DNA from: Candidatus Nanoarchaeia archaeon
Lineage (GTDB): Archaea > Nanobdellota > Nanobdellia > Woesearchaeales > GW2011-AR4
DNA: 64,000 bases
Direction: 5' to 3'
NCBI GenBank assembly: GCA_035293285.1
Contig: DATDOM010000046.1
Span: 5,982-69,981, forward strand
Below are positions 9,431-61,842 of this stretch, one piece after another. A program made the translations under genes and the position numbers. The notes below the pieces were generated by a model, which ran no database searches, had not been told where the DNA came from, and worked only from the letters and a program-made list of their open reading frames with translations. The first letter of the stretch is position 1, and every line of letters begins with the position of its first letter.

Positions 9431-9655
9431 ATGAAACCAAAATCAGTAAAAGCGGTCTGCAAAGCGTTAAATAAATTAGGCTTTGAATTTGCAAGGCAGA
9501 AAGGCAGCCATATTCGTTTCGCCCATCCTGATGGCAGAAAGACAACAGTTCCGTCACATTCCGGGGAAGATATGGGCCCAAAGCTTTTGAATAAGATTGC
9601 CAAAGACATTGGAATTGATAATAAAGAATTTGAAAAAATATTAAGCAAATACTAG
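9431..9655 (+). CDS. hicA: HicA-family mRNA interferase toxin
   Basis: MKPKSVKAVCKALNKLGFEFARQKGSHIRFAHPDGRKTTVPSHSGEDMGPKLL (YcfA/HicA signature). Confidence 0.8.
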   Translation: MKPKSVKAVCKALNKLGFEFARQKGSHIRFAHPDGRKTTVPSHSGEDMGPKLLNKIAKDIGIDNKEFEKILSKY

Positions 9656-9889
9656 TTTAGGGCTAAGGGGCACTTTAATCTCTTGAATATCCACTTTCTT
9701 TAAAATAGGATTATTATCTTCCAAACACAATTCTATAACTTCTCTGACTCTTTTCATAAGCTCTTTCTTGTTTTTAGCTTGTGTGTGGCAGCCCTGTAAT
9801 TCCGGCACATCCGCAACATAATATCCAGATTCATCTTTCTCCACAAGAACTTTGAATTTCATCATTTTTAATTTAGTTTTAGATGACAT
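9641..9889 (-). CDS. hicB: HicB-like (UPF0150) antitoxin
   Basis: FKVLVEKDESGYYVADVPELQGCHTQAKNKKELMKRVREVIELCLED. It converges on hicA, and their 3' ends overlap by 15 nt. Confidence 0.7.
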   Translation of the reverse strand: MSSKTKLKMMKFKVLVEKDESGYYVADVPELQGCHTQAKNKKELMKRVREVIELCLEDNNPILKKVDIQEIKVPLSPKLVFA

Positions 9890-10534: not shown

Positions 10535-10692
10535 GGGGCAGTTACGCCTCGCCATTTCGCTCGGCATACATCGTTTCTCAATCCAGCACATTCGCCACAT
10601 TTCGGGCGAAAATTTTTCCGTGGGAACTTTAGGTTCCACTTGATTCCGTCGTTAACTCGCGGAAGGGTTATCAGTGTTCATCCACGTCGTTA
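10535..10692 (+). repeat. composite GC-rich hairpin module (A-type fragment + inverted B module + TCAGTGTTCATCCAC box)
   Basis: 10565-10612 aligns with 42785-42835. 10614-10680 is the reverse complement of 43066-43120, with a compensated hairpin (gtgggaac/gttccac versus gtgaggc/gcctcac). Confidence 0.6.
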
Positions 10693-10778
10693 GTTATTGC
10701 AATAAATCGAGGCAAATTTTAGTGCCAGTCAAAAATTTGCCGAGTGTAAATATGGTCGCTCAAAGTGACCTATTGAAA
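10693..10778 (+). repeat. two-hairpin repeat, short form (copy E1)
   Basis: TTATTGCAATAA palindrome, CGAGG, H1 ggcaaatttt/aaaatttgcc (loop agtgccagtc), CCGAGTG, H2 ggtcgc/gtgacc. Confidence 0.75.
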
Positions 10779-10971: not shown

Positions 10972-11073
10972 ATGAAACCAAAATCAGTAAAAGCAGTTTA
11001 TAAGGCATTAAACGAATTAGGGTTTGAATTTGCGAGGCAAAAAGACAACGATTTCGAAGAAAATATAAGTTAG
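10972..11073 (+). pseudogene. hicA remnant (first ~23 codons conserved, then divergent, premature stop)
   Basis: MKPKSVKAVYKALNELGFEFARQK then DNDFEENIS*. DNA is about 85% identical by eye to 9431-9500. Confidence 0.6.
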
Positions 11074-12659: not shown

Positions 12660-12742
12660 ATTATTGCAATAAATCGAGGCAAATTTTAGTGTAAATCAAA
12701 ATTTGCCGAGCGAAACCATTGTCGTAAAACGACCGATTAAAA
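12660..12742 (+). repeat. two-hairpin repeat, short form (copy E2)
   Basis: TCAGTGTTCATCCAC box upstream; TTATTGCAATAA; H1 ggcaaatttt/aaaatttgcc (loop agtgtaaatc); H2 gtcg/cgac. Confidence 0.75.
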
Positions 12743-15975: not shown

Positions 15976-17859
15976 ATGGAGCAATCAAATGTGGAGAACA
16001 GCATTCTTGACAGAGTAAATTCTCCAAGGGATTTAAAGAATTTAAGCATTGAACAGCTCAAAATCCTTTCAAAAGACATCAGGGAGAAGATTTTGGAGGT
16101 TGTTTCTAAAAACGGCGGCCATTTAGGAGGCCCTCTTGGCGCTGTTGAGCTTACTCTTGCAACCCATTATGTTTTTGATTCGCCAACTGACAAGATTGTG
16201 ATTGACACAGGCCACCAAAGCTACCCTCACAAGCTCATTACTGGAAGAAAAGGCCGCTTCCACACTTTAAGGCAGTATCAGGGAATCTGCGGATTCTGCA
16301 ATATTTTTGAGTCGGAATATGACGCTTTTGGCGCAGGCCACGCATCAACTGCAATTTCTGCAGCGCTTGGAATGGCAAAAGCGCGCGATTACAAAAAAGA
16401 AAGTAACAAAGTCGTGGCAATTATTGGCGACGGCGCAATGACTGCTGGGCTAGCATATGAGGCATTAAACAATGCAGGGTACCTTAAGTCAGACATTCTT
16501 GTAATATTAAACGACAACCGGATGAGCATTTCGCCAAACGTAGGCGCACTTTCAAATTACTTAAACAGGATTGTGCTAAAGCAGGGATACTTCAAGCTAA
16601 GAAAAGGCACAAAGGAAATCTTAAGCATGATTCCCGGCATTGGTGAAGAAGAGCTTGAAAAAATATTCAAGGCGCAGGAAAAATTAAGGGTTTTGTCAAG
16701 CGAAGGCAATTTCTTTGAAAGCCTCGGATTCCAGTACTTTGGCCCGATTGACGGCCACAATCTTGAAGAGCTGATTTCTGCACTAAAAAATGTAAAAGAC
16801 CTAAAAGGCCCTATTCTTTTGCACGTCAAGACTGAAAAAGGAAAAGGCTACTCGCTTGCGGAAACTGACCTTGACAAGTTCCACGGAATGTCCCCGTTTG
16901 ACCCAATCAACGGCCAGAAATATGTGACAACTACAAAAATGGCATATACCGATGCATTTGCAAATGCGCTAATCAGGATTGCAAAAGATGATGAAAAAAT
17001 AATTGCAATAACTGCCGCAATGAAATCTGGAACTGGACTTCACAAGTTTGAAAAGCACTTTCCGGAAAGGACAATTGATGTCGGAATTGCAGAGCAGCAC
17101 GCTGCAACTTTTGCCGCAGGCCTTGCAATAAACGGCATGAAGCCGGTCTGCGCAATTTATTCAACATTTCTCCAAAGGTCTTTTGACATGATAATCCACG
17201 ACATCTGCCTTCAAAAGCTTCCGGTGATTTTTGCACTCGACAGGGCGGGGCTAGTCGGCGATGACGGGCCAACACACAACGGCCCTTTTGATGTTGCATA
17301 CTTAAGGATAATCCCAAACATGACTGTGATGGTTCCAAAAGATGAAAATGAGCTTCAGCACATGCTCTACACAGCAACATTGCACAACGGCCCCTCATCA
17401 TTAAGATTCCCAAGAGGTAATGCAATAGGAGTCGGCCTAAGTCCTGATTTAAAAAAACTTGAAATCGGAAAAGGAGAAATCATCAGAAAAGGAAAAGATG
17501 TCCTGATTATAGGGATAGGCCCGATTTTATATGATGCTATAAATGCAGTTGAAGAGCTTAAGTGCGATGCTACAATAATAAACGCAAGGTTTGCAAAGCC
17601 CCTTGATGAAAGCCTGATTTTGGAATATGCAAAAGATTTTGATACTATAATAACACTTGAAGAATCTTCAGTCAAAGGCGGATTTGGCTCGGCAATACTT
17701 GAGCTTTTGAACGAAAAAGGCATGAACAAAAAAATCAGGATGATTGGAATTCCTGATACATTCATCGAGCACGGCAAGCAGGACATCCAGAAAAAGATTG
17801 CAGGGATCGACAAGGACAGCATCAAGAAAGTTATAAGCGAAGTAATAAATAAAAAATAG
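15976..17859 (+). CDS. dxs: 1-deoxy-D-xylulose-5-phosphate synthase
   Basis: 627 aa; GGHLGGPLGAVELTLATHYVFD, DTGHQSYPHKLITGR, IGDGAMTAGLAYEALNNAG. Confidence 0.95.
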   Translation: MEQSNVENSILDRVNSPRDLKNLSIEQLKILSKDIREKILEVVSKNGGHLGGPLGAVELTLATHYVFDSPTDKIVIDTGHQSYPHKLITGRKGRFHTLRQYQGICGFCNIFESEYDAFGAGHASTAISAALGMAKARDYKKESNKVVAIIGDGAMTAGLAYEALNNAGYLKSDILVILNDNRMSISPNVGALSNYLNRIVLKQGYFKLRKGTKEILSMIPGIGEEELEKIFKAQEKLRVLSSEGNFFESLGFQYFGPIDGHNLEELISALKNVKDLKGPILLHVKTEKGKGYSLAETDLDKFHGMSPFDPINGQKYVTTTKMAYTDAFANALIRIAKDDEKIIAITAAMKSGTGLHKFEKHFPERTIDVGIAEQHAATFAAGLAINGMKPVCAIYSTFLQRSFDMIIHDICLQKLPVIFALDRAGLVGDDGPTHNGPFDVAYLRIIPNMTVMVPKDENELQHMLYTATLHNGPSSLRFPRGNAIGVGLSPDLKKLEIGKGEIIRKGKDVLIIGIGPILYDAINAVEELKCDATIINARFAKPLDESLILEYAKDFDTIITLEESSVKGGFGSAILELLNEKGMNKKIRMIGIPDTFIEHGKQDIQKKIAGIDKDSIKKVISEVINKK

Positions 17860-17954
17860 ACATTGCATTCACAGCAATTGCTAAAAATAAAATCGGGCTT
17901 CGCCACTAGTTACTCGCGCCCGCATTGGCGCGAAATGCATTAAACGTAAATTCA

Positions 17955-18171
17955 CTGAATGTTCCGAGGCAAATTTTAGTGCCAGTCAAAATTTGCCGAG
18001 CGAAATTATTGAAAATTCAAAGAATTTTCCGGTTTAATTTCATCTATCATTGAAAAATAACATTTAAACTGCGGCAATAACGGAAAACATTAAACTAAAC
18101 TCATTAAACCTTTCACAATAATTATTAGAAAAATAAAATTTAAAAAATAAATAAAAATTACAACAAATAAA
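17955..18171 (+). repeat. two-hairpin repeat, long form (copy E3) with AT-rich promoter-like tail
   Basis: CCGAGG, H1 17968-17997, H2 gaaaattc/gaattttc 18011-18029, GGCAATAAC 18073-18081, AACATTAAAC boxes, TTTAAAAAATAA about 25 nt before the ispG ATG. Confidence 0.75.
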
Positions 18172-19248
18172 ATGCTCGAATACAAATCACCGCAAATTCA
18201 AAGAAGAAAATCAAGGAAAGTAAAAGTCGGAAAGATTTTCATAGGAGGCGATGCGCCGATTCCAATCCAGTCGATGACTACAACTGACACAACAGATGCA
18301 AAAGCAACGATTAAGCAGATTCAGGAGCTTGAAGAAGTAGGCTGCGAAATAATCAGGGTTTCTGCGCCTACAATGGAGGCGGCAAAGGCATTAAAGGAAA
18401 TAAGGGCAAACATCAATATTCCTCTTGTTGTGGACATTCATTTTGACTACAGGATTGCGCTTGAAGCAGTAAAATATGTCGACAAAGTCAGGATTAATCC
18501 AGGCAACATCGGAAACCCCGACAAGGTCCAGCAGGTTGTGAATGCGTGCAAGGAATACAAAGTTCCTATAAGGATTGGTGTAAATCTCGGCTCGCTTGAG
18601 CGCGATTTGTTTGAAAAATATGGATATTCTCCGGATGCAATGGTTGAATCGGCGATGCGCCACGTAAAGATTCTTGAAGACCTTGATTTTTATGACACAA
18701 TAGTTTCGTTAAAGGCATCAGACGTTCCAAGGATGGTTTTGGCATACAAATTATTTGCAGAAAAAACAGATTACCCATTGCATCTTGGCGTAACAGAAGC
18801 AGGCTCAAAATTGCCAGGCGCAATAAAATCATCAATGGGTATGGGAATGCTCCTCTCACAGGGAATCGGCGACACAATAAGAGTTTCATTGAGTGAGGAC
18901 CCAAAAGAGGAAGTAAAAGTCGGAAAAAACATTTTAAGGTCGCTTGGATTAAGAAATGACGGCGTGCAGATAACAAGCTGCCCGACCTGCGCAAGGACCC
19001 AGATTGATGTAATAAAGCTTGTTGAAAAAATAGAAAATGCAACTGACAAAATCAAGAAGCCTATTCACGTTGCAATAATGGGATGTGCTGTCAACGGTCC
19101 TGGCGAGTCAAAAAAAGCCGATATAGGGATTGTAGGCGCGCCCGGAAATCACTTGCTTTACAGGGAAGGGAAGATTGTCAAAAGAATTAATGACAATGAG
19201 ATTGAGCAGGTTCTTCTGAATGAGATTAACGAGATTGCAAATAAATAA
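18172..19248 (+). CDS. ispG: 4-hydroxy-3-methylbut-2-enyl diphosphate synthase
   Basis: 358 aa; IQSMTTTDT, SCPTCARTQIDV, MGCAVNGPGES. Confidence 0.95.
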   Translation: MLEYKSPQIQRRKSRKVKVGKIFIGGDAPIPIQSMTTTDTTDAKATIKQIQELEEVGCEIIRVSAPTMEAAKALKEIRANINIPLVVDIHFDYRIALEAVKYVDKVRINPGNIGNPDKVQQVVNACKEYKVPIRIGVNLGSLERDLFEKYGYSPDAMVESAMRHVKILEDLDFYDTIVSLKASDVPRMVLAYKLFAEKTDYPLHLGVTEAGSKLPGAIKSSMGMGMLLSQGIGDTIRVSLSEDPKEEVKVGKNILRSLGLRNDGVQITSCPTCARTQIDVIKLVEKIENATDKIKKPIHVAIMGCAVNGPGESKKADIGIVGAPGNHLLYREGKIVKRINDNEIEQVLLNEINEIANK

Positions 19249-19251
19249 AAT

Positions 19252-19413
19252 ATGAAAAAGCAATATAAAACTATAAGTATTAATAGATATTTTATAATAG
19301 TATTAATCGTAGTGCTTATTGTTGGATTCAAATTTGGTTGGGTTATTGGTATAATGTTTGCAGCTATTCTGGGATTTTTATACAAAATAATTGAGAATTC
19401 AAATAAAAAATAA
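19252..19413 (+). CDS. possible small membrane protein (53 aa)
   Basis: Own translation: MKKQYKTISINRYFIIVLIVVLIVGFKFGWVIGIMFAAILGFLYKIIENSNKK. Starts 3 nt after the ispG stop. Confidence 0.25.
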   Translation: MKKQYKTISINRYFIIVLIVVLIVGFKFGWVIGIMFAAILGFLYKIIENSNKK

Positions 19414-19415
19414 AC

Positions 19416-19727
19416 CTAATTCCTCACGACAACTTTCTTCTTTTTATTCAACGGCTCAATAACCAAAGTATCGAATAAGTCAACAATTTTTTTAACGAAT
19501 GGATTTGCAACATTTAATTTGTACAATTTTGCATTGCCAATGTTTCTTGTGTTTTTTACAATTCCAAGTTCCACAAAATCATCCCAAAGCCTAAATAAAG
19601 TTGTTCTGCCTATGCCTGAGCCTTCTGCTATGTCTGAAATTGAGTAGTCAATCTCTCTCCCTTCTATTAAAAATTCCAGCACCTTGATTTTGGGAGTGTT
19701 AATAAATTTTGTAAAAGCTGTTGCCAT
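19416..19727 (-). CDS. winged-helix transcriptional regulator
   Basis: YSISDIAEGSGIGRTTLFRLWDDFVELGIVKNTRNIGNAKLYKLN; divergent from the methyltransferase-dxr pair. Confidence 0.6.
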   Translation of the reverse strand: MATAFTKFINTPKIKVLEFLIEGREIDYSISDIAEGSGIGRTTLFRLWDDFVELGIVKNTRNIGNAKLYKLNVANPFVKKIVDLFDTLVIEPLNKKKKVVVRN

Positions 19728-19814
19728 ATTAATGACTAAACGAGTAATATTTATATAACTTTGTTAATACTGTTATAAATAAATAACAACTGTATTTTTA
19801 TAAAAACAATAAAA

Positions 19815-20492
19815 ATGAATAAAGTAAATATCTGGGATGAATTAAGCATGCAGTTCGACGGCTATAGGAAAAATCTATTTTACGGCGTTGCAGATAACAT
19901 GTACACTGCATATCCCATAATTCTTGATTATATAAAAAAGAACAAAAAAGGCGTTTCAAAAAAAGTGCTGGAATACGGCTGCGGGACAGGAACATTTTGC
20001 AGAAAGCTTCCCTCATCGGGGTTTGAACCCATAGGAATAGACATCTCGCCAAAAATGATTTCTATTGCAAAAAAACACAATAAAAGTATTCATTTTTTTG
20101 TGGGTGATTCAAAAAAAGCTGTAAAACTTTCTGGAAAAAGAGAGAAATTTGGGTTTGTAGTTGCAATAATGGTTTTTCAGTTTATTGAAGATATAAGAAG
20201 CTGCATTGAGGATTTGTCAAATTGCCTTGAAAAAAATGGCCATATTATTTTTGCTGTGCACAATCCAAAAAAGATGAGGGAAAGAAAAATAACAAATAAA
20301 CTAAAGCTTGAAGACAAGGAAGTTGACATTTATATCAGGAGTTCAAAAGATTATGATAAAATGTTCAATTCTCTTGGATTTAGCAAAAAACTTGAAAAGT
20401 ACCCGAAAACAAGCGAGGAGTTCCTTAAAAAATACACTCAGAAAGATTCTTTAAGAATATCAAAATACATGATTTTGGCTTACAAAAAATGA
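19815..20492 (+). CDS. class I SAM-dependent methyltransferase
   Basis: VLEYGCGTGTFCRKL motif I; its stop overlaps the dxr start (ATGA). Confidence 0.7.
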   Translation: MNKVNIWDELSMQFDGYRKNLFYGVADNMYTAYPIILDYIKKNKKGVSKKVLEYGCGTGTFCRKLPSSGFEPIGIDISPKMISIAKKHNKSIHFFVGDSKKAVKLSGKREKFGFVVAIMVFQFIEDIRSCIEDLSNCLEKNGHIIFAVHNPKKMRERKITNKLKLEDKEVDIYIRSSKDYDKMFNSLGFSKKLEKYPKTSEEFLKKYTQKDSLRISKYMILAYKK

Positions 20493-21655
20493 AACGAATC
20501 TCAATTTTAGGCTCGACAGGCTCAATAGGGACACAGTCCCTTGATGTAATAAGAAAATACCCTGAAAAGTTCAAAGTTGTAGGGCTGACTGCAGGAAATA
20601 ATTCTGAATTATTGATTAAGCAGATAAAGGAATTTAAGCCAAAAGCAGTTGCAATAATGGACAAAAGCAAGGTTGCAGATTTGCTCAATTTCTCCTCATG
20701 CCAGGTTTTTTCAGGAACAGAAGGGCTTAACAAAATTGCGTCATTAAGCGAAGCAGACACTGTGATTAATTCTCTTGTCGGCTCGTCAGGAGTAGAGCCC
20801 ACTTACAGTGCAATAAAAGCCAAGAAAAATATTGCTTTGGCAAACAAGGAAACTTTGGTTGCTGCAGGCTCGGTAATAATGGAAGAGGCAGAAAAAAACA
20901 ATGTAACGGTAATGCCGATTGATTCTGAACACAGCGCAATATTCCAGTGCCTTAACGGCGAAAACAAGAAAGAAGTTGAAAAAATTATAATAACATGCTC
21001 AGGCGGCCCTTTTAAGAATTTTTCAGGTGAAGAGCTAAAAAATGTTACTGCAAAAGATGCATTAAAGCATCCCACCTGGAATATGGGCGCAAAAATAACA
21101 ATTGATTCGTCCACTTTGATGAACAAAGGATTTGAAGTGATTGAAGCCCACTGGCTTTATGGAACAAATTATGACAAAATTGAAGTTGTAATTCATCCGC
21201 AAAGCATAATACACTCGCTTGTAGAGTTCAGGGACAAGTCAGTAATTGCCCAGCTTGGAATTCCGGACATGAGAATACCAATACAATACGCCCTCTCTTA
21301 TCCAGAAAGGCTTGAAAGCAGTTCTGAATCCCTGAGCCTTTCAAAAATAAAATCGCTCGAATTCAAGGAGCCTGATTTTGAAAAATTTCCTTGCCTAAAA
21401 TATGCGTTTGAAGCAGGAAAAACAGGGGGAACAATGCCTTGCGTTATGAATGCAGCAAATGAAATTGCGGTTCACGCTTTCCTAAATGATAAAATCAGCT
21501 ATCTTGACATTGCAATTATAATAAAAAAAATGATGGATGACCATAACCTGATAAAAAATCCAAATTTGCAGGAGATTCTTGAAGTGGACAGAAAAGTGAA
21601 GGAAGAAACAAAAAAAGTAATTGAAAATGGGGAATTTAATCGTCAAAAAAGTTAA
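20489..21655 (+). CDS. dxr: 1-deoxy-D-xylulose-5-phosphate reductoisomerase
   Basis: ILGSTGSIGTQSLDV, LANKETLV, IDSEHSAIFQCL, HPTWNMGAKITIDSSTLMNKG. Confidence 0.95.
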   Translation: MKRISILGSTGSIGTQSLDVIRKYPEKFKVVGLTAGNNSELLIKQIKEFKPKAVAIMDKSKVADLLNFSSCQVFSGTEGLNKIASLSEADTVINSLVGSSGVEPTYSAIKAKKNIALANKETLVAAGSVIMEEAEKNNVTVMPIDSEHSAIFQCLNGENKKEVEKIIITCSGGPFKNFSGEELKNVTAKDALKHPTWNMGAKITIDSSTLMNKGFEVIEAHWLYGTNYDKIEVVIHPQSIIHSLVEFRDKSVIAQLGIPDMRIPIQYALSYPERLESSSESLSLSKIKSLEFKEPDFEKFPCLKYAFEAGKTGGTMPCVMNAANEIAVHAFLNDKISYLDIAIIIKKMMDDHNLIKNPNLQEILEVDRKVKEETKKVIENGEFNRQKS

Positions 21656-21878
21656 TGCAATGTTCCGAGGCAAAATTTTATTGGCAGGAAAAATTTTACC
21701 GAGCGAAACTATTGAAAATTCGAAGAATTTTCCGGTTTTAAACCGATGTGGATTAAAAATAAACTACAGCAATAACGAACGAACATTAATTAATAGCATT
21801 AAACCGACGGCATTGAGATTTTACAATAAGGAAATTTAAAAAATAAAAGACGGAAGAAATGATAAACTAAACCAAAAA
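21651..21878 (+). repeat. two-hairpin repeat, long form (copy E4)
   Basis: Begins at the dxr stop codon (gTTAATGCAATG). H1 21669-21700 (ggcaaaatttt/aaaattttacc), H2 21714-21732, GCAATAAC 21769-21776, GAAATTTAAAAAA upstream of ispDF. Confidence 0.75.
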
Positions 21879-23048
21879 ATGAATTACGCAATCATCGTCG
21901 CAGCAGGAAGCGGCAAAAGGATGGGGAAAAAAGAAAATAAAGTATTTCTTTCATTACAGGACAAACCCATAATTTACCACACAATAAAAAAATTCCAGAA
22001 TTGTAAAATAATAGATGAAATTATAGTAGTCACGAGAAAAGAAGACAAAAAAAAAATAGAGGAAATAAAAAAAAGATTCAGTTTTAAAAAAATCAGTTCA
22101 ATTGTTGAAGGCGGGAAAGAAAGGCAGGATTCTGTTTACAATGGCTTAATGTCGATCAAAAGCGCAAAAGAAGACAACATAATTCTGGTGCATAACGGCT
22201 GCAATCCTTTGGTCAGGGAATCTGAAATTGTTTCCTGCATAAAAGCAGCAGAAGAAAACGGCGCGGCAATTGTCGGATTTCCATTAAAAGACACAATAAA
22301 AAAGGCAAAAAATGAATTTGTTCAGTCTACTTTAAACAGGGAAAATATTTTCCAGGTCCAGACGCCGCAGTGTGTAAGATACGGCCTGTTTCTAAATGCA
22401 TTTAAAAACTTAAAAGCCAAAAAGCTCAAAGTAACCGACGATTCTTCAATGGTTGAAGCGCTTGGCAAAAAAGTCAAAATCGTGCCCTGCTCATATGAAA
22501 ACATCAAGATAACCGCAAAAGAGGATCTGGAAATTGCACATGGAATATTGAATAAAAGCAAATCAAGTGTGTTCAGGACAGGAATGGGGCAGGACAGCCA
22601 CAGGTTTTCAAAAGACAAAAATAAAAAACTTGTTTTGGGCGGTTTTACAATTGATGAAACCGGATTTGATGCAAATTCTGACGGGGATGTAATTCTCCAC
22701 GCACTGTTTAATGCAGTAAGTTCCACAATTGGCGAGCGCTCGCTTGGCTTTTACGCTGATGAAATGTGCAAAAAAGGAATTACTGACAGCAAAGAATATC
22801 TTAAAGTGATTTTGGAAAAAATGAGAAATTCCGGATTTGAATTAAATAATGTAAGCATTGCAATTGAAGCCTCAAAGCCAAGGCTTGAAAAGCACACAAA
22901 AAGCATAAAGGACTCGTTGTCAAAAATATTAAGCCTTGAAAAATCCAAAATAGGAATAAGTTATACTTCAGGCGAAGGCCTTACTGATTTTGGAAAAGGG
23001 CTTGGGATGCAGTGCCTTGCTTATGTAAGCCTTGATGAGTCATCTTAA
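21879..23048 (+). CDS. ispDF: bifunctional IspD/IspF (MEP cytidylyltransferase / MEcPP synthase)
   Basis: N-terminal IIVAAGSGKRMG; C-terminal half RTGMGQDSHRF...GDVILHAL. Confidence 0.95.
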   Translation: MNYAIIVAAGSGKRMGKKENKVFLSLQDKPIIYHTIKKFQNCKIIDEIIVVTRKEDKKKIEEIKKRFSFKKISSIVEGGKERQDSVYNGLMSIKSAKEDNIILVHNGCNPLVRESEIVSCIKAAEENGAAIVGFPLKDTIKKAKNEFVQSTLNRENIFQVQTPQCVRYGLFLNAFKNLKAKKLKVTDDSSMVEALGKKVKIVPCSYENIKITAKEDLEIAHGILNKSKSSVFRTGMGQDSHRFSKDKNKKLVLGGFTIDETGFDANSDGDVILHALFNAVSSTIGERSLGFYADEMCKKGITDSKEYLKVILEKMRNSGFELNNVSIAIEASKPRLEKHTKSIKDSLSKILSLEKSKIGISYTSGEGLTDFGKGLGMQCLAYVSLDESS

Positions 23049-23117: not shown

Positions 23118-23966
23118 ATGGCCATACCATCAAATGCAAAGATAAACCTGTTCTTAAAGATAGGAAAGAGGCAGAAATCAGGCTACCATAACATACAGTC
23201 AGTCATGCAGAAAATTGAACTAAGCGACAACATCACGATAGAACCTCTTACCGAAGACAAGATAGTGATTGAATGCACAAATGCTGACCTTGAAAATGAA
23301 GAGAACCTTGCCTATAAGGCAGCTTCGCTGCTTAAAAAGAAATTCAGGGTAAAGCACGGGGTAAGAATCCACATCGAGAAAAACATCCCTTTTGAGGCAG
23401 GCCTTGGCGGAGGCTCAAGCAATGCAGCAACAGTTCTTTCAAACCTGAACAAGCTCTGGACTTTAAGGCTTAGCGAAAAGCAGCTGATGAACCTCGCTGC
23501 CCAGATAGGCTCAGATGTCCCATTTCTTATAGGGGACGCTCCTGCGCTTGTCGAGGGAATAGGTGACAAGATAAAAAAAATAAACAAGTCTTTTAGCGTC
23601 AACGTCGTTTTGATAAACCCCGGCTTTAGGGTATCAACAAAATGGGCTTATGCAACCTATGACAAAATGAAGCCAAAAATCAAGACAGATGCCAACATCA
23701 AGGAACTAATCAAGGCAATGGAAAGAAAGGACATATCAAAAATTGCTGACAATGTGCATAATGATTTTGATTCAGTCATCACAAAAAAATACAAAGTCCT
23801 CGAGCAGATTAAGACAAACCTTGTCAGAAATGACGCGCTCTCTGCCTCAATTTCAGGCTCAGGCCCCACAGTATTTGGAATTTTTAAGAGCATTTACGAG
23901 GCACGCGAAGCTTTTTTCAAAATCCAGTACGATTATCCTTTCGTTTTCCTGACAAAAACTATATAA
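23118..23966 (+). CDS. ispE: 4-diphosphocytidyl-2-C-methyl-D-erythritol kinase
   Basis: KINLFLKIGKR..., PFEAGLGGGSSNAATVL (GHMP kinase motif). Confidence 0.9.
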   Translation: MAIPSNAKINLFLKIGKRQKSGYHNIQSVMQKIELSDNITIEPLTEDKIVIECTNADLENEENLAYKAASLLKKKFRVKHGVRIHIEKNIPFEAGLGGGSSNAATVLSNLNKLWTLRLSEKQLMNLAAQIGSDVPFLIGDAPALVEGIGDKIKKINKSFSVNVVLINPGFRVSTKWAYATYDKMKPKIKTDANIKELIKAMERKDISKIADNVHNDFDSVITKKYKVLEQIKTNLVRNDALSASISGSGPTVFGIFKSIYEAREAFFKIQYDYPFVFLTKTI

Positions 23967-24018: not shown

Positions 24019-24211
24019 GTCAATGCCATAAATCGAGGCGAAAATTAGTGCTATTCAATTTTCGCCGAGTGAAAATATTGAAAATTCGCAGAATTTTCCA
24101 GTTGAACGTCATTATGCATTAAAACAATAATAACTAACGACGGCAATAACTGACAACATTAAACTAATAACATTGAAAATTTCACGACAATAAACTAAAT
24201 CACAATAAAAA
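24019..24211 (+). repeat. two-hairpin repeat, long form (copy E5)
   Basis: H1 24037-24066 with compensated stem ggcgaaaatt/aattttcgcc, H2 24080-24098, GGCAATAAC 24142-24150, AACATTAAAC boxes. Confidence 0.75.
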
Positions 24212-25165
24212 GTGAAAAATGAGGAAAAACCAAATAACAAAATGCCAATTATAAAGGTAGCAAAGCACGCAGGATTCTGCTTCGGGGTAAAAAAGGCAAT
24301 TGAGATAGCTGAAGAGGTTGCATCGAAAAACTCAGGGCCGACATATGTCCTTGGCCAGCTTGTTCATAACGAGCGCGTTATAAAGAACCTCGAAGACAAG
24401 GGAATTGTTTTTGTGGACGGGATAAATAAAATACCGCAGAATGCTGTGACTGTCCTAAGGGCGCACGGCGAGCCGGGAACTACTTATGTCTCGCTTGGGC
24501 AAAAGTCAATAGAAAAAGGAAAAAACCTCAATGACGCAACCTGCCCCCTTGTCACTCTTGTTCACAATGTGGCAATCAAGCTAAAGAACTCAGGGTATGA
24601 AGTAATAATTTTCGGAAAGCACGACCATCCTGAGTCAATAGGCACGAGCTTCCATCTCAAAGGAAAGGACACCTTCATTGTAGAGCACCAAGATGATTAT
24701 CAGATAGTGGTTGACTACATCAATAAAAACAATTTTGAAAAAGTTGTAATAATTTCGCAGACAACAATGTCTGTTTATGGTTACAAAGACCTTATCGATA
24801 AAATAAACTCAAAAATACGGAATGCTTTTGTCGAGATTCCGTTAAACCTGCGCGACCTGTCGATAAAGCACGGCTATGTCGACACAATCTGCAACCCGAC
24901 AAAGCAGCGCCAGTCTGACACTGAAGAGATTGCAAAAGAATCCGATGTCGTCATTGTGATTGGCGGGTTAAATTCAAGCAACTCAAAAGAGCTTTACCAT
25001 AAATGCGAGGAGCTCGGAGTCAGGTCTTACTTCATCCAGTCAGCAGAGCAATTGAAAAAAGAGTGGTTTGATTCAATGGAAAAGATAGGAGTGACAGCGG
25101 GCGCATCAACTCCGGATTACCTGATTGATGAAGTTGTTGATAGGATTAAGGAACTTGTTTTTTAG
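24212..25165 (+). CDS. ispH: 4-hydroxy-3-methylbut-2-enyl diphosphate reductase
   Basis: AKHAGFCFGVKKAIE, ...VLGQLVHN.... The track start is GTG; the in-frame ATG at 24242 (MPIIKVAKHAGFCFG) is the more likely start. Confidence 0.9.
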   Translation: MKNEEKPNNKMPIIKVAKHAGFCFGVKKAIEIAEEVASKNSGPTYVLGQLVHNERVIKNLEDKGIVFVDGINKIPQNAVTVLRAHGEPGTTYVSLGQKSIEKGKNLNDATCPLVTLVHNVAIKLKNSGYEVIIFGKHDHPESIGTSFHLKGKDTFIVEHQDDYQIVVDYINKNNFEKVVIISQTTMSVYGYKDLIDKINSKIRNAFVEIPLNLRDLSIKHGYVDTICNPTKQRQSDTEEIAKESDVVIVIGGLNSSNSKELYHKCEELGVRSYFIQSAEQLKKEWFDSMEKIGVTAGASTPDYLIDEVVDRIKELVF

Positions 25166-25200: not shown

Positions 25201-25656
25201 TTATTCAGCAAAAAATCCCATCCTTTCTGAGTCAAACTTCCATGCTTCCGGTAGTTTTCCCGTTCTTTTATAGTATTTTGCAAGCCTGTTTATCTTTGAT
25301 TCTGCCAAGTGAAGCCCCCTGATTGCAGTCTCGTCCTTCTTGTTTGTTTCCATGTGCTTTTTGACAGCAGCATATTTCTTGAACAGTGCAATAAGGTCTT
25401 CAGGCATCTCTCCTGCAAGCTTTTTCTCTGTGAGTATCTCTGTTATTGATTTTCCGCAAAGCACCTGGACGCTTGGAATGCCGTATGAATCCCTTAGCAT
25501 CAGCCCAATCTGCGACGCTGCCTTTCCCTCCTTTGCAAGCTTCCCTATCAAGAGCTCGACTTTCTTTGAGTCATGCAAAATCCATGAAGGAGATGTCTTT
25601 TTTGCCGGCCTCTTTGAGCCTGATTTTCCGCGTTTTCCCGAATGCATTCTTGCCAT
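25201..25656 (-). CDS. rps15: 30S ribosomal protein uS15 (S13e type)
   Basis: MARMHSGKRGKSGSKRPAKK... Confidence 0.9.
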   Translation of the reverse strand: MARMHSGKRGKSGSKRPAKKTSPSWILHDSKKVELLIGKLAKEGKAASQIGLMLRDSYGIPSVQVLCGKSITEILTEKKLAGEMPEDLIALFKKYAAVKKHMETNKKDETAIRGLHLAESKINRLAKYYKRTGKLPEAWKFDSERMGFFAE

Positions 25657-25965
25657 TTTATTCCTCCGATTTATGTTTTAGTTTTTATTTTGATATATTC
25701 TTAGTTTTTATTTTTTTAGTTTTTTATATTTTATTATTTCGTCCTTCGTTTTTTTTAAATTTCGTTATTGTAAAACCTTAATGCCGTAAGTTTAATGTTA
25801 ATCGTTATTGTTCGTCCGTCAATGCCAGTTCGTCATTGTCGTTGTTATTTATTGTAGTTTTAATGTTTAATGACTTTCAATCGGAAAATTCTTCGAATTT
25901 TCAATATTTTCACTCGGCGAATTTTGACTTACACTAAAATTCGCCTCGATTTATTGCATTAACTC
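25657..25965 (-). repeat. two-hairpin repeat, long form (copy E6, inverted)
   Basis: Read on the minus strand: GTTAATGCAATAAATCGAGG, H1 ggcgaatttt/aaaattcgcc (25916-25945), H2 gaaaattc/gaattttc. The tail carries CATTAAAC boxes and GAAATTTAAAAAAA and leads to the rps15 start. Confidence 0.75.
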
Positions 25966-26098
25966 TAGCGTATTTTATTTCTCTGGAGAAATTGTATTTT
26001 CATCCAGTATAGCCAAGCCGTAACCGAGCTACCTTTACCTATAGGATGAATTGATGGTTTATAAAGGTTATTGTTGAGTTTTTGTATAAAGCTTAGAA

Positions 26099-39293: not shown

Positions 39294-39381
39294 AATATTG
39301 CAATATTCCGAGGCAAAATTTAGTGGCAGTCAAATTTTGCCGAGTGTATCTAAAGTTGTCTCAAAGGCAACGGATTTAAGG
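39294..39381 (+). repeat. two-hairpin repeat, short form (copy E7)
   Basis: AATATTGCAATATT perfect palindrome, CCGAGG, H1 ggcaaaattt/aaattttgcc (39312-39341), H2 gttgt/gcaac. Confidence 0.75.
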
Positions 39382-39388
39382 TAATACC

Positions 39389-39555
39389 GGGACCCGTCCT
39401 AAATCTCGCTCCGCTCGGGTTATTGCCAAGCTTGGCTCCTTCATCTCAAATCGCAGGCTGACATTGCCCGGATGGCGCGTCCCCTTTGTCAGCTTTTCAT
39501 CCGTACAAATCATGGCCTCGCAAAAAGGCAATAACCTGCATTTAGGACGGGGCCC
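39389..39555 (-). ncRNA. structured RNA candidate, C-type (small paralog of 42984-43267)
   Basis: Minus-strand read: P1 gggccccgtcctaaat/atttaggacgggtccc, P2 ggttattgcc/ggcaataacc, gctgaca/tgtcagc helix. It shares the tttttgcgaggcc, cgatttgagatgaa and aataacccgagcg blocks with the larger copy. Confidence 0.6.
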
Positions 39556-39570
39556 AAATATCAACTGGTT

Positions 39571-42743: not shown

Positions 42744-42955
42744 AAAAAAGACGCTGAATTATATTTAGGCCGCACCATTAGTGCGGCGTACATTGCTCAT
42801 CCAATCCGCACAATTCGCCCCATTTGGGCGAAAATCGTTTGTTTTTATTTTTACAAACAAATTCAAGGAGTCACCTTCGCAATGCAACGAATCAACCGTA
42901 TTATGTACGCGGCCTAATGCAGGCCGCCTATCTTTGCGGAGCGGATTTAAAATTA
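42744..42955 (+). repeat. A-type hairpin module ending in a TATA-like box
   Basis: Collinear with 61645-61842: AAAAAAGACG, covarying hairpins (ccgcac/gtgcgg vs cagccgc/gcggctg; gcggcc/ggccgc vs gcgcgcc/ggcgcgc), conserved ttcgccc/gggcgaa hairpin, ...TTCGCGGAGCRG-TTTAAAA. Confidence 0.6.
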
Positions 42956-49351: not shown

Positions 49352-49540
49352 AATCATTGCAATATTTCGAGGCAAATTTTAGTGCTAATCAAAATTTGCC
49401 AAGTGAAATTCTTGAAAATTCGGAGAATTTTCCGTTTAAATTGCAAAAATACAAAACAGGCAATAAAAAACGGCAATAACGAGTAACATTGAATTAGTCC
49501 AATTAAACTTTGAAATAAAAAAGCCAGAAATTAAAAATAA
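49352..49540 (+). repeat. two-hairpin repeat, long form (copy E8)
   Basis: TCATTGCAATATTTCGAGG, H1 49371-49400, GCCAAG variant, H2 49414-49432, GGCAATAAC 49472-49480, AACATTGAAT / AATTAAAC boxes. Confidence 0.75.
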
Positions 49541-59486: not shown

Positions 59487-59572
59487 TAATGTAATAAACT
59501 GAGGCAAAATTTTAATGGCAGAAGAAATTTTGCCGAGTGTAATTATGGTCGCCCAAAGCGACGGATTGAAGT
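59487..59572 (+). repeat. two-hairpin repeat, short form (copy E9)
   Basis: TTAATGTAATAAACTGAGG, H1 ggcaaaattt/aaattttgcc (59503-59534), H2 ggtcgc/gcgac. Confidence 0.7.
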
Positions 59573-59657
59573 AAAAAATAAAAGTAAGAACCTCTAAAAT
59601 ATTAAGTAGAGGACGTGCCCAAAAATGAACAAATTGAGACTATTGCAAGTTAACCCT

Positions 59658-59893
59658 TATTCTTCCTCAACTCTGTGACCCAAAGACACCGAAGTTCAAG
59701 ATTACCGCTGCTTCCTTCCAGACCTGACGGATTTTCAAGAGCTTTAGCCCCTTGAGGCAGAGTCTCAACGTCGGAATAAGGCTGGCAACAATCACAATTG
59801 CCGCTTTTTGAGCTTCACCGCGCCTAAAGCACATCTGCGCTGACAGGAGAGTGCTGACCTCCCGGCAAAGTCCTCCGTAGGTTAGGAAGATAA
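59658..59893 (-). ncRNA. ffs: signal recognition particle RNA (7S/SRP RNA)
   Basis: Minus-strand read contains GTCAGGTCTGGAAGGAAGCAGC (59707-59728), the universal helix-8 motif. The ends pair: tcttcctaac/gttgaggaaga. Confidence 0.8.
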
Positions 59894-59930: not shown

Positions 59931-60133
59931 TGAGTGAAACCAGAAGGATTCACACACGGGTTTTCTTTGTGAAAACCCTACTCACAAAGGTAAAATCCAC
60001 ACTGCGCATGGAGTTTCCCTCTGCATTCGGTGTTCATCCACTTTACGTAAAGTTATTGAAATATTCGAGGCAAATTTTAGTGCCATTCAAAATTTGCCGA
60101 GTGTAAATATTGTTGTCAAACAACCGATTTAAG
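59931..60133 (+). repeat. GC-rich hairpin module + two-hairpin repeat, short form (copy E10)
   Basis: gggttttc/gaaaaccc hairpin, TCGGTGTTCATCCAC box, GTTATTGAAATATTCGAGG, H1 60069-60098, H2 gttg/caac. Confidence 0.7.
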
Positions 60134-61644: not shown

Positions 61645-61842
61645 TAAAAAAGACGAAGGATGTTAGGCAGCCGCCAATAACTGCGGCTGCATTCATTGAA
61701 CACAAAATTCGCACATTCGCCCCATTTTGGGCGAAAGTTGATAAAAAGTACCAAGTAAACAATTGAAACCCGCATTGCGGCGGGTTGTAAGATAAATGCG
61801 CGCCATTGTGGCGCGCCTAACATTCGCGGAGCAGGTTTAAAA
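61645..61842 (+). repeat. A-type hairpin module ending in a TATA-like box ~28 nt upstream of the tRNA-like gene
   Basis: Collinear with 42744-42955; gttaggc/gcctaac long-range pair; ends CGCGGAGCAGGTTTAAAAAAACC. Confidence 0.6.

Follow-up and report, generated by a model that had tools for sequence, protein, structure and literature searches.

The module at positions 17955–18171, between dxs and ispG in a 64,000-nt stretch of contig DATDOM010000046.1 (the window), appears to be a composite of a 5′ unit of about 85 nt, containing two hairpins (H1 and H2), and a younger 3′ tail of about 130 nt. The two-hairpin unit is an old multi-copy family found across the Woesearchaeota (DPANN archaea), absent from Rfam 15 and from the literature searched. 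We read it as a protein-recognised boundary element that acts on RNA to set or shield 3′ ends, joined in the window's lineage to a portable leaderless promoter tail, and tentatively assign this reading a probability of about 40%. In this reading the unit would punctuate the genome after the end of one transcription unit and right before the core promoter of the next, and selection would act on its two hairpins in just one strand. A trans-acting protein would probably dock on the conserved H1 loop and the tandem G·A pairs. The hairpins would fold in RNA arriving from upstream and define or protect its 3′ end, through processing, an exonuclease stop or insulation, so separating it from the downstream promoter. 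The composite, carrying a putative leaderless-type promoter, would have been copied into neighbouring junctions of the methylerythritol phosphate (MEP) gene cluster, probably from the copy beside rpS15 (E4), and would thereby have turned the once-compact pairs dxr-ispDF and ispE-ispH into separately promoted units.

Inspection and alignment confirmed the five long-form copies (E1–E5; Table 1) proposed in the first-pass annotation, with their parts in the common order it described. Its account of H1 as a 10-bp stem with a 10-nt AGTGnnAnTC loop was also correct, as were the compensatory stem variants that it quoted (ggcaaatttt/aaaatttgcc in E1 and E5, ggcgaaaatt/aattttcgcc in E3, ggcgaatttt/aaaattcgcc in E4); the E2 stem has 11 bp with one C·A mismatch. 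The copies are mutually 71–84% identical, and the H2 core TTGAAAATTCNNAGAATTTTCC occurs exactly five times in the window against 0.13 expected. A covariance model (R1) built on 18 relatives of equal geometry, the check that the annotation had proposed, identified exactly 10 units in the window at 44–70 bits, the next best hit scoring 16 bits. Five are the long forms; the other five, which had been missed along with the lineage-wide spread of the family, are short units (S1–S5) with the same head and H1 and different H2 hairpins. The density is thus about one unit per 6 kb. By pairwise BLAST, long forms extend from about −18 to +180/210 relative to GAGGC, and short forms from about −15/−40 to +70.

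Beyond the window, pattern scans with the H1 motif found 47 genome loci from about 20 metagenome-assembled genomes (MAGs) of Woesearchaeota/Nanoarchaeota, 17 more loci in further genomes and 27 loci in metagenome contigs. The covariance model found 100 units in about 439 kb of Woesearchaeota/Nanoarchaeota DNA. A scan of genomes with the H2 core returned chance matches only (L001–L006; L numbers denote loci). Two pattern scans of viral contigs found no element, and a viral or mobile origin was set aside. Comparison with Rfam 15, also proposed in the annotation, gave no matching family: over the whole window the SRP RNA alone passed its gathering score, 18 related loci yielded tRNAs only, and when a full pair from L007 was scanned permissively the only matches were two at chance level (E 1.3 and 2.9), far under gathering scores.

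The unit consists, in order, of a head box ATTG(A/C)AATAAATYC, H1, an A/U-rich linker (about 5 nt in addition to TGTAA, ACTAA or CACTA), H2 and a 3′ box GGATT(G/T)AA. H1 comprises a C-G pair, tandem G·A/A·G and a stem of about 10 bp, and its loop reads ARTGGCAGGAC or AGTGnnAnTC; the H2 stem has 4–13 bp of almost any sequence. Across the 100 units, pairing was found in 98.5% of cells, compared with 80.8% in shuffles and 28–54% in slid controls, and two-sided changes occurred at 14 of 16 pairs (241 cells). The search pattern did not force this pairing, since its R/Y position, in the first 56 sequences, held A-U 32 times, G-C 23 times, G-U once and A·C never. A compensatory variant of the E1-type H2, GAAAATCC/GGATTTTC, is present in L063. 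The H1 loop core and the flanking G, A, G, A (motif C-GA-G/C-GA-G) are more than 95% conserved. Purine-purine mismatches, at the base of H1 and in some H2 stems (for example GUGAGC/GCGAAC), are compatible with one strand only. The annotation's own strand argument, a U-G pair at the base of H2 replaced by U-A, fails: the U preceding H2 keeps its sequence whatever the partner (T·G 60, T-A 16, T·C 9, C-G 1). Copies at random positions, including inside genes, had been named there among the refuting conditions; 74 of 79 units lie outside open reading frames (ORFs). The unit is firmly a structure-constrained extragenic element, and a protein probably recognises it. Single-sequence folds suggested a helix that would close the head box onto the 3′ box in a three-way junction; it was rejected (59.3% paired against 59.0% in shuffles).

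The passage from H2 into the 3′ box recalls a processing site cut by a Cas6-like endoribonuclease, as in CRISPR repeats. In most units a small hairpin is followed directly by GGATTGAAA, and H2 with (GG)ATTGAAA resembles the mini-hairpin and AUUGAAA(C/G) handle that make up the 3′ half of type I-B/III repeats. However, no locus contains a repeat-spacer array, and H1, the best conserved part, has no CRISPR-repeat counterpart, so that we consider this origin extremely unlikely. A CRISPR repeat as such was also rejected, there being no arrays and just an occasional second mini-hairpin.

The arrangement of units in relatives is paired. Apparent upstream boxes there turned out to be another, reverse-complemented unit, and head-to-head pairs of two subtypes are common, flanking an A/T-rich palindromic spacer of 17–53 nt. 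Class A has the loop AGTGGCAGGAC; class B has the loop AATGGCAGAAA and an extra G-C pair. The arms of a pair each carry their own covarying stems and are not complementary to one another. Left arms of the window's lineage are degenerate (for example GTGTTCATCCAC). Often 21–42 nt separate the 3′ box from the next gene boundary, which for class-B units is a co-oriented ATG and for class-A units a convergent gene's stop. Unpaired units run in the direction of the upstream gene in 27 cases against 12. T-runs of at least 5 within 40 nt after the unit were found in 10 of 38 cases with a convergent next gene and in 3 of 51 with a co-oriented one. A boundary or insulator role fits this layout, because units follow gene ends and precede core promoters, and the inverted pairs lie between co-directional genes.

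The same layout could be taken for independent small RNA genes of about 80–100 nt in divergent pairs, each running from the A/T-rich spacer to a T-run. The spacer is a TATA-like palindrome (TATTTATTcATTGAATAAAT), T5–T8 runs often follow class-A units, and each arm has covarying stems of its own. Against this, where spacers are short the TATTTATT box lies just 15–22 nt before GAGGC, and the distance across pairs ranges over 17–53 nt. Transcription starting about 25 nt downstream of the box would begin within H1. In the window no promoter-like box keeps a fixed distance from the units, small-RNA boxes of known type are absent, and Rfam gave only the two weak matches above. We regard small RNA genes as highly unlikely.

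Units also stand 25–42 nt 5′ of the ATG of housekeeping genes at orthologous sites of different genomes. The downstream gene is rpS15 in the window, L011, L022 and L033, and rpS19e in L049, L008 and L064 (in L064 by N-terminal similarity only); rpS7, rpL18e, a class-I aldolase, CTP synthase, SufB and a NifU-like gene follow a unit at one locus each. At the rpS15 site H1 is conserved and H2 is swapped outright between genomes, being GAAAATTC/GAATTTTC in the window, GAAAATTTGC/GCAAATTTTC in L011, GCGAC/GTCGC in L022 and GCAGAGC in L033. The unit is firmly seen as old and vertically retained, and also as gained or lost locally. A near-identical E1 unit (2 differences over about 85 nt) occurs at a different locus in L075. 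The suggestion that the element preferentially colonised the MEP cluster does not hold for the two-hairpin part, which is lineage-wide and kept 5′ of rpS15 and rpS19e in several genomes. As a separate observation, the SufB gene 3′ of a unit in L042 (2045–4594) has an intein with a LAGLIDADG homing-endonuclease domain.

These positions would also suit a cis-regulatory element that controls the gene downstream, whether as a structured leader RNA at its 5′ end or as part of a strong housekeeping promoter, upstream of the core. The rpS15 unit lies in sense orientation between the ATG and the promoter with its leader-like box, and the 3′ box GGATT(G/T)AAA is at about the position of the TFB recognition element (BRE) and TATA box. 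Half of the units, however, have no co-oriented downstream gene, including the class-A units, E5, S2, S3, S4 and S5. Covarying hairpins are unlike the recognition of double-stranded DNA by a transcription factor, many unrelated genes stand downstream, and the relative L083 expresses the same genes unit-free. A cis-regulatory role is accordingly quite unlikely in our assessment.

The leader-like box deserves mention in its own right. Upstream of rpS15 in five genomes (the window, L083, L011, L022 and L033) a TATA box, TTTATAAA, is followed by a box of about 75 nt, ..GAAAGATAGCNCGGTT..GCTTGGCTATACTGGATGAAAA..TTCTCCAG, which is a candidate archaeal rpS15 leader or regulatory RNA. It is 18 nt from the ATG in L083, with the unit interposed in the other four genomes; in the window E4 (309 nt) separates the two. 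A tRNA-Gln gene lies just upstream of the TATA and leader-like box in L011.

Several observations weigh against an RNA-level boundary element, and most of them bear on the strongest rival explanation, namely a repetitive extragenic palindromic/bacterial interspersed mosaic element (REP/BIME)-like repeat acting as single-stranded DNA. Its hairpins would form on one strand, for example the lagging-strand template, and be recognised by a domesticated HUH/tyrosine transposase, a topoisomerase, or a replication or recombination factor; spread or maintenance would occur at the DNA level, with effects on neighbouring genes secondary. Stems are nearly pure Watson-Crick and wobble is scarce (G·U 13 against A·C 6 in about 1,500 cells), which would be unusual in a functional RNA and suits DNA hairpins equally. 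Because strand-specific wobble is weak, the annotation's alternative of a structured RNA is not established over a single-stranded DNA hairpin. GAA is the commonest H2 loop (49 of 100 units) and the closing pair is C-G in 69 of 100, so that C-GNA-G triloops dominate, and H2 is reduced at conserved loci to GCAGAGC or GCCGAAGGC, mini-hairpins of 2–3 bp; both forms are classic stable DNA mini-hairpins, weak as RNA. The 5′-CGAG-3′ tandem G·A is a stable DNA motif as well. Units fold well with RNA and equally with DNA parameters (DNA z −3.5 to −4.7).

Position and orientation add to these points. In the window, 9 of 10 units are on the + strand, irrespective of how their neighbours are oriented, alongside a rising cumulative GC skew, which hints at a replication-strand bias at the DNA level, though one based on just 10 copies. 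Many units lie 5′ of a TATA box, so probably outside the downstream mRNA, and class-A units in relatives are antisense to both flanking genes, so that an RNA role needs antisense or divergent transcripts. In none of the window's five long forms was a run of at least 5 T seen on the sense strand. We know of no hairpin requirement in archaeal termination. The portable terminator and promoter cassette of the first-pass annotation stands as a real portable, modular intergenic element, while nothing shows termination. As for the tail, E2, E3 and E4 have an ill-positioned TATA-like run, and that of E5 is aimed at a convergent gene.

Presence and absence at orthologous junctions, the E1-like unit of L075 and the BIME-like head-to-head pairs of two subtypes around an A/T-rich spacer are further consistent with a single-stranded DNA element. 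Other features fit it poorly. In 536 kb around some 110 units there is one Y1_Tnp gene, which has its own, different end hairpin; no conserved GTAG-like flank and no target-site duplication were seen; the 10–11-nt H1 loop is poor for cruciform extrusion; and retention at orthologous sites at about 65–75% protein identity, with slowly covarying stems, is unlike young mobile repeats. This explanation is possible, and we hold it to be rather doubtful.

The tail was examined as the second part of the long form. Its conserved core reads AAC-GGCAATAAC-GAAT-AACATTAAAC-TAAnnn-CATTAAA-nTTT-ACAATAA...AAAATAAAA, with CAWTRAA boxes spaced about 13–14 nt (from manual box positions). Tandem Repeats Finder did not call this box array, and RNAalifold found no conserved secondary structure in it (0 pairs). 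The tail is confined to the window's own lineage. It is a separable module, because the L073 tail comes after a unit whose H2 is of another kind and after further inserted sequence. In L073 and L067 the tail ends in a TATA box about 29–33 nt before the ATG.

The standard promoter of this genome is very regular: in at least 16 genes a TATA box (TTTAWAWA) begins −30 ± 2 from an ATG that is leaderless, whereas operon-internal genes have instead a GGAGG Shine-Dalgarno sequence at −10 to −14. Examples of the leaderless type are at 971, 1409, 1878, 9641, 10027, 28929, 29514, 51634 and 57695, and a BRE-like (C/G)RAAAG often precedes the box. The tail run AAATTTAAAAAATAAA fits this consensus, as would be expected of an archaeal leaderless core promoter, and in E1 it is at −33/−34 of ispG, close to the leaderless position. 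The tail differs from such a promoter in that it forms part of a portable repeat, about 130 nt long, whose CAWTRAA boxes lie upstream, and in its position in E2–E5: at −45 of ispDF in E2, degenerate before ispH in E3 (a weak AATAAAAA at about −35), and at about −100 of rpS15 in E4, with no gene following in E5. The genes ispG, ispDF and ispH have no Shine-Dalgarno sequence and rpS15 has its own GGAGG. The promoter proposed in the annotation would thus fit E1 and the missing Shine-Dalgarno sequences, but does not carry over cleanly to the other copies.

E1, E2 and E4 run up to the next start codon, as had been claimed for all five; E3 ends about 30 nt 5′ of the likely ispH ATG at 24242, the GTG at 24212 probably not being the start, and E5 faces a convergent stop with no start codon. 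In E5 the 3′ G·A motif of H1 is changed to CCAAG, and this copy is probably decaying. The dxr stop codon (TAA, 21653–21655) does lie within a head box, GTTAATGC, but in E2 and not in E4.

The MEP genes and the archaeal rpS15 were confirmed by Pfam. The MEP pathway of Woesearchaeota has been described as a bacterial acquisition with a fused ispD/F (PMC8421398). In the relative L083, dxr, ispDF, ispE, ispH and rpS15 (minus strand) occur in the window's order, with proteins 63–76% identical. Spacers there are 9 nt (dxr-ispDF), 63 nt (ispDF-ispE) and 31 nt (ispE-ispH), compared with 223, 69 and about 275 nt in the window, and a G-rich Shine-Dalgarno-like run (GGGGG) precedes ispH. The orthologous MEP/rpS15 junctions of L083 contain no unit, and strict pattern scans of the genome collections returned no contig of its MAG. 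Because these junctions are compact and unit-free, E2, E3 and E4 are either insertions in the window's lineage or losses in L083. The annotation's splitting of an acquired operon agrees with the compact L083 junctions, but only in part: the ispDF-ispE spacer has its own TATA box in both the window and L083, so that the L083 cluster is not a single operon either.

Four of the five long forms lie within 8.1 kb (binomial P ~0.001). The strongest pairwise match of all is E3-E4 (84% over 135 nt), and E4 also gives the longest match to E2, while the longest matches of E1 are to E3, E5 and E2, not E4. Local copying from an ancestral rpS15 copy, E4, would be the simplest history, because the rpS15 unit is common to four genomes, the long forms are clustered and E4 gives the best matches; the direction is suggested by these comparisons.

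Two observations concern the assemblies. A Logan contig (L054, SRR3989295), aligned to window 17988–21692, starts within H1 of E1 and ends within H1 of E2, so that short-read assemblies apparently break at the repeated units. The two-hairpin element is also carried by many MAGs under the label 'uncultured Methanosarcinales' (binchicken/TPA assemblies; L013–L015, L020, L026–L028, L034, L036, L044–L046, L048, L049, L051, L083, L090–L101), one of them with a Woesearchaeota-like MEP cluster, and the label is probably wrong.

In kind, the unit belongs with known repetitive extragenic hairpin elements and mosaic intergenic repeats of bacteria. Like the REP/BIME repeats of enterobacteria it is multi-copy, strictly extragenic and made of imperfect hairpins kept by compensatory changes, and it occurs at gene 3′ ends and between co-directional genes in inverted pairs of two subtypes around a linker (in relatives, the left arms being degenerate in the window). 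It differs in being archaeal, in having two unlike hairpins per unit, a conserved 10–11-nt loop and tandem G·A, in its conserved orthologous sites across distant genomes and in the promoter-like tail of one lineage. No REP-associated tyrosine transposase (RAYT) or Y1 transposase was found nearby, apart from a single IS200-type Y1 transposase (PF01797, E 2.5e-32) in L021 (4154–4714, minus strand), about 20 nt 3′ of a unit. It carries its own IS200-type end hairpin, CCAGCTaaAGCTGG, and as the sole copy in 536 kb it led us to reject a RAYT/TnpA association, though a single-copy RAYT elsewhere in the genomes is possible.

Correia elements of Neisseria and BOX elements of Streptococcus pneumoniae are mosaic, modular repeats that carry promoters or processing sites. 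The present element shares with them a head, hairpins and an optional tail, promoter-like sequence brought to genes, and transcribed hairpins that may affect mRNA ends; it differs in being much older and more diverged, with arms that are not complementary, no mutually pairing inverted ends and no target-site duplication seen. The histone mRNA 3′-end stem-loop of metazoa is processed with a CPSF73-family nuclease, whose archaeal homologue aCPSF1/FttA is a termination and 3′-end factor. By analogy only, that stem-loop is likewise a conserved, probably protein-read hairpin just after coding regions. Here, however, units are also antisense and upstream of promoters.

Other assignments were rejected. 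A miniature transposable element with inverted repeats (MITE), the annotation's further alternative, was dismissed, as the stems of the arms are non-complementary, the head-3′ box helix does not exceed its shuffles, no target-site duplication is identifiable and the copies are 71–84% identical. For an IS200/IS605-derived palindrome-associated transposable element, H1 and H2 are too unlike each other and no TnpA recurs; for an integron attC site, which has RYYYAAC at its 5′ and GTTRRRY at its 3′ end in one long imperfect hairpin, the box order is reversed (GTTAATG ... CATTAAAC) and there are two separate hairpins. A K-turn/L7Ae motif would require a 3-nt bulge between a canonical and a non-canonical stem, but the tandem G·A is flanked by Watson-Crick pairs on both sides with none in consistent register. 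Neither C/D box, H/ACA nor hammerhead RNA showed consistent boxes or Rfam matches, and neither ARAGORN nor the Rfam tRNA model returned anything for the units.

Table 1. Coordinates of the long-form copies, short units and neighbouring features (window positions unless a locus is named)
Feature	Position	Strand	Description
E1 head box	17947–17964	+	degenerate TAAATTCACTGAATGTTC, ATTGMAATAAATYC in other units; alignment
E1 H1	17965–18000	+	C-G closing pair, tandem G·A/A·G, 10-bp stem GGCAAATTTT/AAAATTTGCC, loop AGTGCCAGTC; covariation; covariance model 48.4 bits
E1 linker	18001–18010	+	A/U-rich, CGAAATTATT
E1 H2	18011–18029	+	GAAAATTC-AAA-GAATTTTC
E1 3′ box	18030–18037	+	CGGTTTAA, counterpart of family box GGATTGAA
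E1 tail	18038–18134	+	unstructured CAWTRAA(C) box array; RNAalifold, 0 pairs
E1 tail box	18073–18081	+	GGCAATAAC
E1 tail box	18086–18095	+	AACATTAAAC
E1 tail box	18102–18109	+	CATTAAAC
E1 tail box	18111–18121	+	TTTCACAATAA
E1 TATA-like run	18135–18152	+	AAAATTTAAAAAATAAAT; TTTAAAA from −33 of ispG ATG (18172)
E2, dxr/ispDF	21651–21878	+	H1 21666–21703, H2 21714–21732, tail, TATA-like run
E3, ispE/ispH	24019–24241	+	H1 24034–24069, H2 24080–24098, tail with degenerate TATA-like run
E4, upstream of rpS15	25657–25965	-	H1 25913–25948, H2 25884–25902, longest tail of all copies
E5, between convergent genes	49352–49540	+	H1 49368–49403, H2 49414–49432, tail
S1	10703–10778	+	H2 GGTCGCT-CAAAG-TGACC; 64.4 bits
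S2	12670–12742	+	H2 GTCGT-AAA-ACGAC; antisense between two minus-strand genes; 69 bits
S3	39304–39380	+	H2 GTTGTCT-CAA-AGGCAAC; 58.4 bits
S4	59495–59571	+	class-B-like loop AATGGCAGAAG; 36 nt from 3′ end of convergent SRP RNA gene; 66.8 bits
S5	60061–60133	+	H2 GTTGT-CAA-ACAAC; 38 nt from stop of convergent gene; 70.5 bits
dxs	15976–17859		
ispG	18172–19248		
methyltransferase	19815–20492		
dxr	20489–21655		
ispDF	21879–23048		fused
ispE	23118–23966		
ispH	24242–25165		likely start
rpS15	25201–25656	-	archaeal
rpS15 TATA and leader-like box	25983–26075	-	
rpS15 TATA and leader-like box, L083	4013–4130	-	
SRP RNA	59607–59877		archaeal; identifies the window as archaeal

Other structured or repeated sequences were noted near the units. 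Just after S3, and also in L079, a GC-rich, strongly structured stretch of about 170 nt (39389–39556) has a long terminal helix GGGACCCGUCCUAAAU/AUUUAGGACGGGGCCC, with a minimum free energy of −65.5 kcal/mol and z −3.9; it may be an unannotated RNA gene (no Rfam match). A second structured repeat, AAACGAGAGCGAC-stem...stem-AAC-CCGCTTGTG, stands 60–120 nt 5′ of class-B units in L010, L024, L030, L032, L037, L042, L060 and L077; its stem covaries by eye (ACCUU/AAGGU, ACUUU/AAAGU, ACUUUU/AAAAGU), and Rfam does not contain it. Another repeat family, the third, reads ..CGCACATTCGCCCCATTT(T)GGGCGAAA, has the hairpin TTCGCCC/GGGCGAA and is found at 10561–10611, 42783–42833 and 61686–61736, and upstream of a unit in L067; two copies adjoin two-hairpin units. 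Elsewhere in the window, an 81-nt duplication with 83% identity (9431–9511 and 10972–11052) covers the start of a small ORF (MKPKSVKA..., HicA-like by eye). With a nearby HicB-like antitoxin gene (9641–9889, minus strand), the region may be a duplicated toxin-antitoxin module.

What is new here is an archaeal (DPANN) family with two unlike hairpins, a conserved loop, tandem G·A and orthologous conservation before ribosomal protein genes. In a broader reading, which we judge unlikely, the unit would be a dedicated protein-read signal punctuating the whole Woesearchaeota genome, either as a 3′-end, processing or insulator signal or as a replication-linked, strand-specific DNA signal, and its fusion to a promoter would have re-wired a bacterial MEP operon. 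DPANN archaea are uncultured, and to our knowledge their gene punctuation and regulation are almost entirely undescribed. A conserved, structure-constrained element whose loop is probably read by a protein would offer a concrete experimental handle in these organisms, and the units could act as a lineage marker. The MEP cluster would provide a natural example of how promoter modules enter a pathway gained by horizontal transfer, and of operon domestication, in which the relative is compact while the window's lineage has promoter-bearing modules and has lost the Shine-Dalgarno-like run before ispH.

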